A stretch of DNA of 51,309 nucleotides from Blastocatellia bacterium (GTDB lineage Bacteria; Acidobacteriota; Blastocatellia; RBC074), in assembly GCA_035275805.1 (NCBI GenBank), contig DATEMG010000282.1, positions 1 to 51,309 on the forward strand. Direction: 5' to 3'. Shown one piece after another: positions 118 through 51,260 of this stretch; within the stretch, counting starts at the first letter, position 1; each line of letters begins with the position of its first letter. The notes under the pieces were generated by a model. It made no database searches. It was not told the DNA's origin and saw only the letters and a program-made list of their open reading frames with translations. A program made the position numbers and the translations under genes.

Positions 118-247
118 CAGTCAGATGTCAGATGTCAGATGTCAGATGAAGTCAGAAGTCAGAAGTTTGATGTTAGATGGTAGATGTTAGTGAGGGGCTC
201 CGGCGCTAGTCTTTCACTGACATCTGACATCTGACATCTGACATCTG
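118..247. repeat. Hairpin element with (GTCAGAT)n arms
   Basis: 122-148 is the exact reverse complement of 221-247 (27 bp), each arm about 4 tandem heptamers. Degenerate heptamers continue into the 72-nt interior. The element ends 13 nt before the ftsA ATG. Confidence 0.9.
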
Positions 248-260
248 GAGAGGGAAGACA

Positions 261-1514
261 ATGGCTAGACAGAACTCACCTATCGTGGGATTAGACATCG
301 GCACGAGCAGCGTGCGCGTTGTGATCGCGGAGGCGCTCGACGGCCAGCTCGAAATCGTCGGCGTCGGCGACGCCGATTCGAAAGGGCTTCGCAGGGGCGT
401 GATCAGCAAACCCGACTTGACCGTGGACGCGATCAAGCGCGCGGTCGAAGACGCGGAGCTGATGTCGGGGCTGACGGTCAATCAGGTTTACGTTGGGCTA
501 GCCGGTTCGAGCGTCAAGGGGGAGAACAGCAATGGTATGATCGCGATACCCGGGCGGCACCGCGCGATCACCCACGAAGACATCATGCGGGTGATAGACA
601 CCGCTTGTGCGATCTCTATCCCCTCGGGCCGCGAAGTCGCCGACGTTCTGCCGCAAGAATACACCGTGGACGATCAGGACGGCATCGACGACCCGCTGGG
701 CATGCTCGGCTCGCGGCTCTCGGTCTCAGTTCACATCATCACCAGCCCGGTGGCCGCCAAACAGAACATCGTCTCCAGCGTCAACCGCGCCGGCCTGCAC
801 GTGGCTGGGATATGTCTGACGCAGCTCGCCGCCGCCGAGGCGGTGCTCACCGACGACGACCGCGAATACGGCGTGGCGCTGGTCAACATCGGCGGCGAGA
901 CGACGAGCCTGGCGATTTATCAGCGCGGCTCGGTCTGGCACACGGCGGTCTTCCCGCTCGGCGGCAATCATTTCACGAACGACATTGCGGTCGGGCTGCG
1001 CACGCCGATCCCCGAGGCCGAAAGGATCAAGCGCGACCACGGCTGCGCATACCGCCCGCTGCTCGGCCCCGAACAGGCTTCCGAGTTGATCGAGGTGCCG
1101 AGCGTCGGCGGGCGCGCGCCGCGCGCGGTCTCGCGCCAGATCTTGTGTGACATACTCGAGCCTCGCGCGGAAGAAATCCTAGCGCATGCGCAGGACGAGA
1201 TCCGACAGGCGGGCTTCGACCGGCAGTTGTCCAGCGGCGTCGTGCTCACCGGCGGCGGCGCGATGCTCGACGGGCTGATCGAAGTCGCCGAACACGTCTT
1301 CAACGCCCCGGTCCGCCTTGGCGTCCCCGGTGACTTCCAGGGATTGGGCGACGAAATCGCTTCGCCGAATTTCGCCGCCGCCGTCGGATTGATTCTCTAC
1401 GGATCGCGCCGCGAATTGGGGCTCGGCTCCGGCTCTCGCAATCAATGGCGCCGCGCGGCGTCCAAACCAATCGGGGAGAGAGTCAGATCGTTTTTCGGAA
1501 TCAGGCGGCAATGA
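261..1514 (+). CDS. ftsA: Cell division protein FtsA (actin-like ATPase)
   Basis: 417-aa ORF with [12 protein letters not shown] phosphate-1 motif, [10 protein letters not shown] and VVLTGGGA actin-fold motifs. Directly upstream of ftsZ. SD-like GGAGAGGG just upstream of the ATG. Confidence 0.95.
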
Positions 1515-1658
1515 GCTATTGGCGTCACGACCTCTTGTGTTAAAATCCGCCGCCTGCTACAGGAGCGTGCGCCGAATTGAAATGCAGAATCATACGGGGT
1601 CTGCGGTTTCCTCGGCTAGATAAATCAGCAGACTACTGAAACACCAGTAGGAGGTAGG

Positions 1659-2816
1659 ATGTCGTTAGATGATCGCACAGGGCTGAATTTCACTTTCGGT
1701 GACGAGCCGCCACAGGCGGGCGCGCGAATCAAAGTCATCGGCGTCGGAGGCGGCGGGAGCAATGCCATAAACCACATGATCGACGCCCGCATCGAGGGCG
1801 TCGAGTTCCTGGTGGCGAACACGGACCTTCAGGCGCTCAACAGGTCACAGGCGCCGGTCAGAGTGCAACTCGGCGCGAGGCTCACCAAAGGTTTAGGCGC
1901 CGGCGCCAACCCCGAAGTCGGGCGCGACGCCGCGCTCGAAGACACCGAGAAGATACTGGAGGTGTTGGAAAACTCCGATATGGTTTTCGTCACCGTCGGC
2001 CTGGGGGGCGGCACCGGCACCGGCGCAGCGCCGATCATCGCCTCGCTCGCGGCCGAACTTGACGCGTTGACGGTAGCCGTCGTCACGAAACCTTTCCCTT
2101 TTGAGGGCCGCCATCGCATGCGCCAGGCCGAGGCCGGTTTGGAAGAGCTGCGATCGGTCGTCGACACTTTGATCACGATCCCGAACGAACGGCTGCTGCA
2201 TGCCGCCGACCGCAGCACGTCGCTTTCGGACGGGTTCAAGATGGCCGACGACGTGCTGCGCCAGGCCGTCCAGGGCATCTCCGACCTGATCACCATCCCC
2301 GGCTTTATCAACGTCGATTTCGCCGACGTCCGCGCGATCATGAAGGGCATGGGCTTTGCGCTGATGGGCACCGGGCATGCGGTCGGCGAAAACCGGGCCA
2401 TGGATGCGACGCAGCGCGCGATCTCCAGCCCGCTCCTCGAAGAGGCTTCGATCAACGGCGCCAAAGGCGTATTGGTGAACATCACCGGAGGCGGCGACTT
2501 GACGCTCTTCGAATTCGACGAAGCGATGAGGGTCATTCACGACGCAGCCGACCCCGAAGCCAATATCATCACCGGCATGGTGACGGATGAACGCATGCAG
2601 AATGAAATGAAGATCACCGTCATCGCTACAGGCTTCGAAAGTCATAAAAAGAACGAGAAAGTTCATAACATGCCGGTCCGTCAAACCACGGCCGGCGGTC
2701 ACAGCAATTTGAACGCCGCGCAACCCAGAATCGCTCCTCCTTCCCCAGGCTCAATCCCCCTCAGGACGGAGGCGGATCTTGAAATTCCGACCTTTATGCG
2801 GAAGAAGGCTGACTAG
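1659..2816 (+). CDS. ftsZ: Cell division GTPase FtsZ
   Basis: [13 protein letters not shown] and the tubulin signature [18 protein letters not shown] upstream. Conserved ftsA-ftsZ order. Confidence 0.97.
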
Positions 2817-3224
2817 TCGGATTTTACGATCTCCCCTGCCATCCCTCTTGCGTTGACAAATTTCATAAGGTAGCATTGCTTTATCAACGAGCAACAGTAA
2901 TCGTGAGGCGTCTGAGCAAATAGCGCTATCGCTGATTCCCGCAAAGTCCACCGTTGATCTCACGTGGGGAAGTTGTCATACCTGTGTTGGCCCTTGTCGG
3001 CTCCAGCTTAGTCTGACGACGGGCTTTTAAATCGGCTCTTAATAGTTGGCGCGCTTGTCGGTTGATTTCAATCCTCATTCCCGCTGGCTACGACGTGCGA
3101 AATTGACTTGTTGGACAATCCGCTCGAATAAGGCGGGCTTACGGCTCGTTACTGTCGCTCTATTCAGGGGCAGAGGGTCAGACTGTCCCTTCACTTTTCA
3201 ACAAAACTCACAGGAGAAGCGATC

Positions 3225-3599
3225 GTGAATCGGAAATTAATTCGCACCACACTGGCAGAGGTCAAAGAGAGAGAGATGCAAGCGCAGCAGGCGCGCCGCA
3301 TCGTCCCTGAACCGCGCCCGGAACCTACCACTCCGTCGCCGCACCACCCACACCAGCCTGTTGGGCAGAAGAAGAAAATTCCCCCCGAGCAGACCAATGC
3401 GGAGAGCTTCTATTATAAGAAGCAGATGGACGCGCACACGCCGATGGTCCTAGTATTGCGGGACAATGAGGAATTGCGCGGCACAATCGAATGGTACGAT
3501 AAAAACAGCATTAAACTGCACCGCGACGAAGGCCCGAACCTGCTCATCCTCAAACATAACATCAAGTATATGTACAAGGATGAGAAAAACCGCGACTGA
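3225..3599 (+). CDS. hfq: Hfq-like (Sm-fold) RNA-binding protein with a Pro-rich N-terminal extension
   Basis: The C-terminal 65 aa fit the Hfq pattern: helix [10 protein letters not shown], Sm1-like [26 protein letters not shown], Sm2-like [11 protein letters not shown] (cf. YKHAI). GTG start preceded by AGGAGA. Confidence 0.55.
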
Positions 3600-50731: not shown

Positions 50732-50732
50732 A

Positions 50733-50769
50733 GCGACAGGGCGACAGGGCGACGGGGCGACGGGGCGAG
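50733..50769. repeat. GGCGAC-unit G-rich arm (family copy 3, left part)
   Basis: GCGACAGGGCGACAGGGCGACGGGGCGACGGGGCGAG, starting 2 nt after the BMP gene stop. Confidence 0.85.
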
Positions 50770-50813
50770 AAAATCCAGGTTGGACTGAAAAATATGACAG
50801 AGTAGGCGCCCGC

Positions 50814-51188
50814 ATGGAAAAGATCAAAGGTTACAAAGATCTTCGCGTTTATCAGGCTGCTATTGATGCAGCCATGTCAATCTTTACTCTGACGAAACAT
50901 TTCCCGCCCGAGGAGAAATACTCGATGGTTGACCAGATGCGTCGCTCGTCTCGCTCTGTTTGCGCCAAGATCGCTGAAGCTTGGCGCAAACGGCGATATC
51001 CCGCACATTTTGTCAGCAAGTTGAGCGATTCGGAAAGTGAAGCGGAAGAGACAAGGGTTTGGATCGAACTCGCGCATCGTTGTGGCTATCTGAAGAAGGA
51101 GAGGGCCGATGAACTTGATGACTGTTATGACAAGATCCTCGGACAGCTTGTTCTGATGATTAACGCTCCAGAGAAATGGACTCTGTGA
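50814..51188 (+). CDS. Four-helix-bundle protein (23S rRNA intervening-sequence protein / Avd-like family)
   Basis: YKDLRVYQAAIDAAMSIFTLTKHFPPEEKYSMVDQMRRSSRSVCAKIAEAWRKR...E is the family hallmark. Start set at MEKIKGY; the upstream part of the track ORF translates a repeat arm. Confidence 0.8.
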   Translation: MEKIKGYKDLRVYQAAIDAAMSIFTLTKHFPPEEKYSMVDQMRRSSRSVCAKIAEAWRKRRYPAHFVSKLSDSESEAEETRVWIELAHRCGYLKKERADELDDCYDKILGQLVLMINAPEKWTL

Positions 51189-51212
51189 CTTGAAGACTGA
51201 AAATGAAAATCT

Positions 51213-51260
51213 GGCGATGTGGCGACCGGGCGACCGGGTGATTTGGCGACTGGGCGAGGG
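51213..51260. repeat. GGCGAC-unit G-rich arm (family copy 3, right part, same orientation)
   Basis: GGCGATGTGGCGACCGGGCGACCGGGTGATTTGGCGACTGGGCGAGGGG. Any C-rich partner arm would lie beyond the window end. Confidence 0.8.

Follow-up and report, generated by a model that had tools for sequence, protein, structure and literature searches.

Why do so many of the gaps between genes in one acidobacterial contig hold a long hairpin, and what kind of element are these hairpins? The question is raised by a stretch of 51,309 nucleotides from a Blastocatellia bacterium (contig DATEMG010000282.1 of GenBank assembly GCA_035275805.1; the whole stretch is called the window here), in which 18 intergenic stems, labelled E01 to E18, occur, many with arms built from short units in tandem. 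The hairpins are real and lie far above chance expectation. Those with tandem-unit arms are, with a probability that we put at roughly 0.6, mostly gene-less members of a group of small, selfish, stem-enclosed cassettes, of the same kind as the intervening sequences (IVSs) of 23S rRNA that contain an open reading frame (ORF).

Inverted repeats were counted if they had arms of at least 18 nt, complementarity of at least 80%, and a loop of no more than 130 nt, with 30 dinucleotide-preserving shuffles of the window as the chance baseline. The 51.3-kb window contains 15 inverted-repeat clusters, against 0–2 (mean 0.3) per shuffle. Both the arms and their 7–9-nt arrays were recovered independently by a repeat search and by Tandem Repeats Finder, at the coordinates of an earlier sequence-only reading of the window, and on folding the stems are long and nearly perfect. 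Looser inspection yields the 18 elements, which occupy 18 of the 44 spacers; the pervasive intergenic hairpins of that reading are thus borne out. With genes positioned by Pfam-supported ORFs together with gene calls on near-identical contigs, all elements are situated between protein-coding genes: 52 of their 1731 bases (3%) overlap coding sequence, against a coding share of 85% for the window, and they cover 22% of all its intergenic bases. Neither Rfam, at its gathering thresholds, nor a scan for tRNAs gave a match in the window, which holds no rRNA. Per 10 kb, short inverted-repeat clusters number 2.9 in the window and 4.8 in a sister strain; the remaining Acidobacteriota loci have 1.7 and those of other phyla 0.45, a comparison biased in that these loci were fetched via genes for intervening-sequence proteins (IVPs).

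One such gene lies inside the last stem of the window. The cargo protein of E18 matches PF05635 (1.6e-30) and TIGR02436 (6e-28), is distantly Avd-like, has solved relatives in PDB 2gsc and 2rld, and finds its closest relatives in metagenome-assembled genomes (MAGs) of Blastocatellia and Pyrinomonadaceae. In GCA_036565725.1, a MAG with the label Blastocatellia bacterium, one contig has the same gene order and encodes a NusB identical to that of the window. Two GGCGAC-type arrays flank the E18 gene. The window ends before the complementary arm, which is visible in the 99.3%-identical L002 (L numbers are labels of comparison contigs and loci) as a C-rich array at 11634–11681, ending 11 nt before the start codon of the ABC-ATPase gene at 11693. 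The whole L002 element folds with its left arm paired to this long right arm, and the internal G-rich array pairs with the proximal portion of that arm as a local hairpin. At this site, the cargo gene is absent from L001, L004, and L005. One coding copy is inside the window itself, contrary to the earlier suggestion of a partner encoded elsewhere. The cargo was also considered as a defence system and rejected: PADLOC returned no match for it, and the sole PHROGs match reflects the known relationship with Avd.

Is such enclosure peculiar to E18? Relatives of its protein were assembled as 79 loci from one-genome-per-species contigs of Acidobacteriota, Desulfobacterota, Nitrospirota, Verrucomicrobiota, Bacteroidota, Chloroflexota, Planctomycetota, and other phyla, and a second family, GxxExxY (TIGR04256/PF13366 PDDEXK_3, with a PD-(D/E)XK nuclease fold), as 80 loci from metagenomes. 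Enclosure was defined as a flanking inverted-repeat score of at least 14 by an ungapped method, and geometry-matched shifted positions in the same loci served as controls. IVP genes are enclosed by an inverted repeat at 42 of 70 testable loci compared with 3 of 343 controls (Mann–Whitney p ~1e-30), and GxxExxY genes at 42 of 69 compared with 0 of 198. A complete GxxExxY element, L303 1965–2398, measures 434 nt: its arms are exact 28-nt reverse complements of three units each, a Shine–Dalgarno sequence and ATG directly follow the left arm, and the right arm starts 4 nt past the stop codon. Cargo ORFs are mostly co-directional with the upstream host gene (66/74 for IVP and 58/70 for GxxExxY, against about 67% for the downstream gene), which fits read-through expression.

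Gene callers and ORF lists place some start codons inside arms, as at L303 2393, where a GTG within the right arm is assigned to the ABC-ATPase. Likewise, ATG 50715 is listed for the E18 IVP ORF, yet the family match begins at residue 41. Start sites adjoining these elements are easily mis-annotated.

The arms are not interchangeable between families. Around IVP genes they are period-8 arrays of GA[C/A][A/G]CGG[A/G], with the purine-rich arm upstream of the ORF and a sharp mode of exactly four units per arm (28/72 upstream and 31/72 downstream arms; loci L006–L084); a few IVP arrays are very long, with up to 26 units. GxxExxY genes have units of period 9–10, namely CACAGAT, CGCAGAT, CACGGAT, or ACAGGAT, and the unit motif together with a terminus (AGCCACAGA...) is common to GxxExxY genes in different phyla. 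The IVP-type motif stands upstream of 51 of 72 IVP genes and of none of 69 GxxExxY genes (controls 1/225); conversely, the GxxExxY-type motif precedes 42 of 69 GxxExxY genes and none of 72 IVP genes (controls 2/132). Other IVP subfamilies have AAAATTA or GGGTTGC units, and a gene for a YhcG/DUF1016 nuclease is enclosed by 7-nt AGTTGAG-type arms. The unit motifs remain tied to a given cargo family in different phyla, with unrelated host sequence on either side. This argues for arms that have a function within the element; on the simplest reading, they would be recognition sites for the cargo protein.

A further observation concerns CTTTGCG units. In L274 (459–819) and L242, both from IMG/VR, arms of this unit that end in CTTTGCGAGA, as in E11, surround a 315-nt loop encoding a 54-aa CxxC...CxxC zinc-ribbon-like ORF. 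The case is anecdotal, and the ORF may be a third cargo type.

How do the gene-less hairpins of the window relate to such cassettes? They have terminal repeats in common with coding elements. The unit GGGGCGAC occurs in E07, E14, and E18, and E07 and E14, which lie at unlinked sites, also have in common a non-repeat segment, GAGAATGGGACAGAAAGC, adjoining their arrays; rather than having decayed independently, they are hence copies of a single gene-less element. For the second family, the arm of E02 (ATAGACAGGATGAACAGGATTTTTCAGGAT) is almost identical to that of the GxxExxY gene in L148 (TAGACAGGATTAACAGGATTTTTTTCAGGAT) and resembles the arms of GxxExxY genes in L128, L158, L163, and L180. Judged by these shared sequences, the GGGGCGAC and CAGGAT hairpins can be taken as gene-less copies of IVP-type and GxxExxY-type cassettes, respectively.

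A full element is about 430–700 nt long and comprises an arm of 2–6 short units, a Shine–Dalgarno sequence, an ORF of about 120 codons, and the complementary arm, with the ORF encoding either an S23p/Avd-like four-helix bundle (TIGR02436) or a GxxExxY protein of PD-(D/E)XK fold (TIGR04256/PF13366). The units are specific to the cargo family: period-8 GAnnCGGn for this IVP subfamily and period-9/10 CACAGAT or CAGGAT for GxxExxY. Placed in transcribed spacers right after a stop codon and co-oriented with the upstream gene, the elements would probably owe their expression to read-through. Once transcribed, the arms would form 20–55 bp of double-stranded RNA, and RNase III may then cut the stem and excise the insertion from the host transcript, as it does with the Coxiella IVS, so that the insertion is tolerated. 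Gene-less hairpins, the majority in the window, have the arms without the ORF and disperse as families; the arms themselves act like microsatellites, recombine, accept nested insertions, and give way to unrelated elements in the spacer that they occupied.

Contigs about 97–99.7% identical to the window allow orthologous spacers to be compared between related strains, as the sequence-only reading had proposed, and presence/absence, arm-length, and replacement polymorphism are all found. The clearest site is the Bmp/ABC-ATPase spacer that holds E18, where contigs with an identical 338-aa Bmp have an IVP cassette (window, L002, and L003), a GxxExxY cassette behind a CACAGAG-unit arm (L004), or a bare CACAGAG hairpin (L001 and L005) whose arms match the GxxExxY elements of L004, L303, and L312. 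In related species, the same spacer holds IVP (L006–L008) or GxxExxY (L293–L312) elements. There are also compound forms, since L002 reads arm–ORF–arm–loop–arm and L011 is its mirror image (hairpin, then ORF, then a second C-rich arm); from such forms, ORFs are suggested to be gained and lost in part through array-to-array recombination. Duplicated arm copies and about 30 nt of host flank are found on both sides of the GxxExxY cassette in L293–L295, together with a remnant GxxExxY C-terminus, suggesting repeated insertion or unequal recombination at one site. The direction of change (ORF loss or gain) and any benefit to the host are things that we infer.

Other spacers behave in the same manner. 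The E01 site differs even among strains whose FtsZ is identical: in L095 the variant is shorter, and in L098 and L099 the site holds a 44-bp ATTTTCC/TGTCATC stem of unrelated sequence. The E07 hairpin varies from 103 to 136 nt, and L090 has a GAAGGGGT-unit hairpin in its place. Elsewhere among the strains, the E09 site is taken by another GTAG palindrome, 44 nt long, or by a 222-nt hairpin nested three deep; in L086, a hairpin of the E08/E17 family, its third copy, sits inside a second hairpin beside a GTAG palindrome. The number of modules in E03 varies (97–139 nt), and the E05 array has 3–7 copies among strains in 7-nt steps. Against a background identity of about 97%, the arms of E14 differ from those in L001 by gain and loss of units and E15 is 30 nt longer in L001 with different unit variants; E13 is nearly unchanged there. 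E08 carries its loop in the opposite orientation to that in L085, with the reverse complement matched at 20 of 22 positions, from which it follows that the arms recombine. The trmFO/VWA spacer, empty in the window, holds a hairpin in L001, and this insertion has no consistent target-site duplication. A 19-nt direct repeat, TGAAAAGTCGGCGGCTTTTT, flanks E06 (13285–13305 and 13542–13562) and corresponds to the descending arm and U-tract of a canonical terminator, so that E06 looks like an insertion into a terminator with target duplication. At the DNA level, then, the arms undergo slippage, arm recombination, nesting, and exchange at fixed spacers. Dispersed families, strain polymorphism, and arms in common with ORF-bearing elements uphold the earlier suggestion of non-autonomous elements related to a coding partner; where that suggestion named RAYT/IS200-IS605, it is not supported for the tandem-unit elements, whose partners are TIGR02436 and TIGR04256/PF13366 genes in the loop.

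Could mutation alone account for all this? Slippage would expand the units and template switching at palindromes would make the second arm, with no mobility, cargo link, or function. Such a process would explain why copy number moves in exact unit steps (E05), and the loop inversion likewise shows arm recombination. Every unit of E10 has one G:G mismatch and every unit of E15 an A:C mismatch, so each arm has been partly homogenised separately; the same mismatches rule out that the second arm is always copied from the first, and of the earlier statement that complementarity is kept, the long, nearly perfect stems stand and these per-unit mismatches are exceptions. Mutation by itself does not, however, predict the same arm families at unlinked sites with common non-repeat segments, the same unit motif and terminus around GxxExxY genes of different phyla, a motif cross-specificity of 0/69 and 0/72, or the swapping of unrelated elements at one site beside an identical neighbouring protein. 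We regard it as a highly improbable explanation.

Placement with respect to genes bears on a different alternative. Nine elements begin between −4 and +7 nt relative to the upstream stop codon, the gaps being 2 nt for E01, −4 for E02, 7 for E03, 7 for E04, −3 for E08, 1 for E11, −2 for E14, 2 for E15, and 1 for E18. Several, including E01 and E15, span their spacer from stop to start codon, many lie in tight co-directional, operon-like gene pairs such as ftsQ-ftsA, and one, E16 (listed at 44051 in the sequence-only reading), enters the end of a gene; E02, E11, and E17 occupy convergent spacers. The closeness to stop codons, the overlap with a gene end, and the placement between co-directional genes agree with what had been read from the sequence, as does the general lack of a U-tract: at least 5 T within 8 nt 3′ of the stem on the sense strand are found in just 1 of 17 elements, in which respect they differ from intrinsic terminators. 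Canonical T8 terminators are present in the window at 13272–13305 and 18189–18161.

The hairpins might then be RNA elements that benefit the host and are selected for structure, acting as U-tract-independent terminators, 3′-end stabilisers, or operon-processing sites, comparable in action to REP/BIME or to the tandem-repeat hairpins of cyanobacteria, with the link to small ORFs secondary. Starts 0–7 nt past stop codons and the occupied convergent spacers fit this, and transcript stabilisation or translational coupling has been proposed for the short tandemly repeated repetitive (STRR) elements of cyanobacteria (PMC2670836). Moreover, the ftsQ/ftsA, E07, E09, and Bmp/ABC spacers always hold some hairpin, of unrelated sequence, as expected from selection on structure and not on sequence. 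Yet termination would be harmful at ftsQ-ftsA, and many elements lie in tight co-directional pairs, the ispD-ispF region included; the window has ordinary T8 terminators, whereas the elements are without U-tracts; G.U pairs are not in excess over A.C; E10 and E15 are mismatched in every unit; the trmFO/VWA site has a hairpin in L001 and none in the window; and structure alone leaves cargo-specific units conserved across phyla unexplained. As a general explanation, terminators are rejected on the placement within gene pairs, the missing U-tracts, and the T8 terminators elsewhere in the window. The earlier proposal of a terminator or 3′-stabiliser role fits poorly with tight co-directional pairs and ordinary U-tract terminators, although it is neither shown nor excluded. 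Host-selected RNA structure, which is compatible with selfish cassettes and does not exclude them, seems to us unlikely as the principal explanation.

Several observations weigh against the selfish-cassette interpretation. By the ungapped method, about 40% of cargo genes have no strong flanking inverted repeat, and loci were fetched through cargo genes, which biases densities in other phyla. No cargo partner for GTCAGAT, GGAGGAT, CAGTGGA, or CGAAGAA was found in the fetched loci and IMG/VR; a search for these units and CTTTGCG yielded just lone arrays, short hairpins, and the one 54-aa ORF inside CTTTGCG arms. For about half of the tandem-unit elements of the window, the link to cassettes would therefore be by analogy only. 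No transposase and no clear target-site duplication are associated with the elements, and to our knowledge four-helix-bundle proteins have no catalytic activity. At several spacers, every strain has some hairpin, which might just as well reflect selection for a hairpin at that place. Sense-strand G.U does not significantly exceed A.C in 45 IVP stems (48 vs 35, p=0.19), where the pairing register of tandem units is ambiguous, nor among between-strain substitutions (25 vs 18, p=0.36), where the signal is clean in E04 only; without a G.U excess, RNA-level selection on the stems is undemonstrated.

A more far-reaching form of the cassette interpretation is held here only tentatively. The elements would constitute a cross-phylum autonomous mobile class, in which the small cargo protein, a pentameric four-helix bundle or a GxxExxY nuclease, recognises its own units and drives insertion into, or exchange at, existing hairpins, read-through transcription from the host carries the element along, RNase III neutralises the insertions, and gene-less copies are derivatives similar to miniature inverted-repeat transposable elements (MITEs). 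If true, two very large protein families of unknown function would acquire one, and there would be a common origin for rRNA IVSs and perhaps for STRR-type repeats.

Not all hairpins in the window belong to the tandem-unit class, and the single shared design of the sequence-only reading does not hold. Tandem-unit arms are found in about 12 elements (E01, E02, E05, the E06 core, E07, E10, E11, E13, E14, E15, and E18), and the arms of E08 and E17 have two units each. Gene-less copies of the CTTTGCG family are likewise present at loci from other Acidobacteriota, for example in L036. In E09 and E12, the arm consists of GTAG, two nucleotides, a 5-bp stem, and a TTTA loop, paired head-to-head; these two alone (gtagtcCCGCCTTTAGGCGG) fit the definition of GTAG-tagged repetitive extragenic palindromes (REPs), and the tandem-unit elements do not. 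E03 and E16 are built from small TTTA-centred palindromes, of which the window contains 8 against 0.7 expected, and are possibly further GTAG-tagged REP dimers. E04 is a plain hairpin. The strains differ by six substitutions in its stem, every one of them A-to-G opposite T and hence G.U in the sense RNA. As this is the mark of ordinary RNA-level structure, the data suggest that E04 is a hairpin conserved at the RNA level, with no relation to the tandem-unit class.

This mixture also bears on whether the hairpins are miniature REP or REP-doublet (REPIN) elements moved in trans by a REP-associated tyrosine transposase (RAYT; an IS200/IS605-like Y1 transposase) encoded elsewhere. E09 and E12 carry the published REP signature (GTAG, two unpaired bases, 5-bp stem, 4-nt loop, head-to-head), a different GTAG palindrome stands at the E09 site in other strains, and the excess of TTTA-centred palindromes points the same way. 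The tandem-unit elements, by contrast, have no GTAG tag, have arms of 20–55 nt of repeats, and are tied to non-RAYT cargo; no Y1-transposase domain was found among the 40 window proteins scanned against Pfam. At most 2–4 of the 18 elements would be covered, and so, as an account of the hairpins at large, RAYT mobilisation is very unlikely; for the GTAG-tagged E09 and E12 only, a RAYT partner is plausible. The elements are listed in Table 1.

Table 1. Hairpin elements of the window and the parts of E18 (coordinates are those of the 51,309-nt window)
Feature	Position	Strand	Description
E01	120..247		Arms of GTCAGAT (7-nt) units; hairpin fills the ftsQ-ftsA spacer
E02	4672..4766		CAGGAT units, period 9-10; perfect 30-nt arms; between convergent pdxA and hypothetical gene; ORF-less, putative GxxExxY type
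E03	7262..7380		Composite of GGGC-TTTA-GCCC palindrome modules; not a tandem-unit element
E04	8808..8849		Plain 18-bp hairpin; between gltA (citrate synthase) and a glutaredoxin gene
E05	12560..12640		Imperfect hairpin; right arm is an ATCCTCA array
E06	13362..13533		Nested composite; outer inverted repeat 13362-13402 / 13493-13533; core hairpin of CTTTGCG units at ~13392-13474
E07	18519..18641		Hairpin of GGGGCGAC (8-nt) units; ORF-less, putative IVP type
E08	21967..22088		Arms of ATCAGTACCGCGAGCGGTAGCGAGCG, in one family with E17; 22054-22088 is a third copy of the arm
E09	24524..24611		Head-to-head dimer of the GTAG-tagged palindrome GTAG-TC-CCGCC-TTTA-GGCGG; REPIN-like
E10	26604..26726		GGAGGAT / GATCCTC units; between radA and an MDMPI/DinB-like gene (26729-27568, - strand)
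E11	32569..32654		CTTTGCG(N) units; perfect 26-nt arms; between convergent AMP-ligase gene and glmS
E12	34586..34676		Second copy of the E09 GTAG-REP dimer; loop differs
E13	36668..36787		CGAAGAA units; between glmU and a CofD/yvcK-like gene
E14	41394..41502		GGGGCGAC / AAGGCGAC units; at the stop codon of the VWA gene; ORF-less, putative IVP type; paralogue of E07
E15	42786..42876		CAGTGGA / CCCACTG units; fills the PIN-TRAM to ispD spacer exactly
E16	44046..44115		Arms contain the palindrome GACAGAC-TTTA-GTCTGTC; overlaps last 30 nt of ispF
E17	46151..46219		Second copy of the E08 arm family; loop differs
E18 left arm	50733..50768		(GCGACAGG/GGGGCGAC) x4.5; starts 1 nt 3' of the Bmp stop; 5' arm of the ORF-bearing IVP-type element
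E18 cargo gene	50814..51188	+	Four-helix-bundle / 23S rRNA intervening-sequence protein (S23p, Avd-like), 124 aa
E18 internal G-rich array	51221..51257		GGCGACCG x4.6, 3' of the ORF

Some genes of the window and its near-identical contigs are of note in their own right. A NACHT-HEAT STAND NTPase gene (46369–49584, − strand) contains 96-nt tandem repeats at 46604–47316, with seven units in the window and three in L002, and is absent from L001 (site 9741–10000). In L090 (7642–11171), which comes from the same JGI record as L001, a TIR-NACHT gene and XisH/XisI are inserted at another location; both regions look like strain-variable, defence-like islands. The ORF at 4781–5515 (− strand) consists mostly of Lys/Ala-rich tandem repeats (Tandem Repeats Finder periods 12, 21, 33, and 36) and is a histone H1/AlgP-like low-complexity protein whose sole family match, a weak one, is to a low-complexity tail. 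Between ftsZ and pdxA lies an Hfq-like ORF (3225–3599), with a weak Hfq_1 match in the annotations of near-identical contigs.

For annotation, the elements explain the large intergenic share that they take up in this window and the strain-level variation of a common soil lineage, and they carry a warning about mis-called start codons beside the arms. Both cargo families are very large: a fragment of one GxxExxY protein matched 4,433 relatives. The IVP domain has been called functionally uncharacterised (PMC11270868), and PDDEXK_3 is described as of unknown function with ‘multiple transfers’ (PMC3424549); if both are cassette cargo, the question of their function becomes directly testable.

How, finally, do these elements compare with known systems? 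Their components are known, namely IVSs with S23p, STRR hairpins, and REPs. The sequence-only reading did not recognise a described repeat class; the Coxiella IVS (PMC4990558) and STRR sequences (PMC2670836) are described relatives, while spacer cassettes of this kind were not found described. In the open-access literature, no report was found of family-specific tandem-unit stems around these genes outside rRNA, of gene-less derivatives saturating Acidobacteriota spacers, or of three-state exchange at one spacer, although earlier descriptions are possible.

MITEs are similarly short and non-coding, occur in many copies, and have terminal inverted repeats in common with longer coding elements. 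The present elements differ in having no recognisable transposase or clear target-site duplication and cargo proteins that are not known transposases; in having arms that are short-unit arrays and not unique terminal repeats; and in being replaced at fixed spacers and nested into hairpins, unlike random insertion. REPs and REPINs (PMC3733652, PMC3116915) are likewise dispersed extragenic palindromes, often just 3′ of genes, strain-variable, and arranged as inverted dimers, and E09 and E12 conform to the GTAG-tag definition (PMC3733652); the tandem-unit elements, however, lack both the GTAG tag and the short single palindrome, and their partners are not Y1 transposases.

Closer in structure are the STRR sequences, described by Vioque in 1997 according to the citation in PMC2858038, in which tandem repeats of about 7 bp form intergenic hairpins, including between the co-transcribed hupS and hupL (PMC2670836); here too, tandem 7–10-nt units form the arms of intergenic hairpins. 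STRR sequences belong to filamentous or heterocyst-forming cyanobacteria and the present elements to Acidobacteriota, the units differ, and the open-access literature found does not report an association of STRR sequences with cargo genes. A direct link to them was considered and is not established: in the single Nostoc locus with an IVP gene that was fetched (L075), arrays do not flank the gene.

The nearest counterparts are the IVSs of 23S rRNA in Coxiella and Leptospira (PMC4990558). In Coxiella burnetii, the IVS is a selfish element of 428–444 nt with a 28-bp terminal stem and tandem GACAGAT heptamers, in strain-variable number, ahead of the S23p ORF; RNase III excises it, with the 5′ cut at the first repeat, and the four-helix-bundle family forms pentamers (PMC4990558). 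The terminal stem of about 28 bp, the tandem 7-nt units in the 5′ arm (the present elements likewise have their units in the arms), the ORF of about 120 codons in the loop as in E18, the size (434 nt for the GxxExxY element), and the selfish, horizontally transferred character are all alike, and the 17 ORF-less elements of the window have their match in IVSs without an ORF, which are also known (PMC11270868). They differ in lying between protein genes and not in an rRNA helix, for which reason they are not IVSs in the strict sense; in being mostly ORF-less; in having a second, unrelated cargo family, GxxExxY, with its own units; and in that RNase III excision is proven in Coxiella and would apply here by analogy, to stems whose length should suffice for a substrate. 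If the cassette interpretation is true, rRNA intervening sequences gain a plausible source in a pool of such elements in operon spacers.

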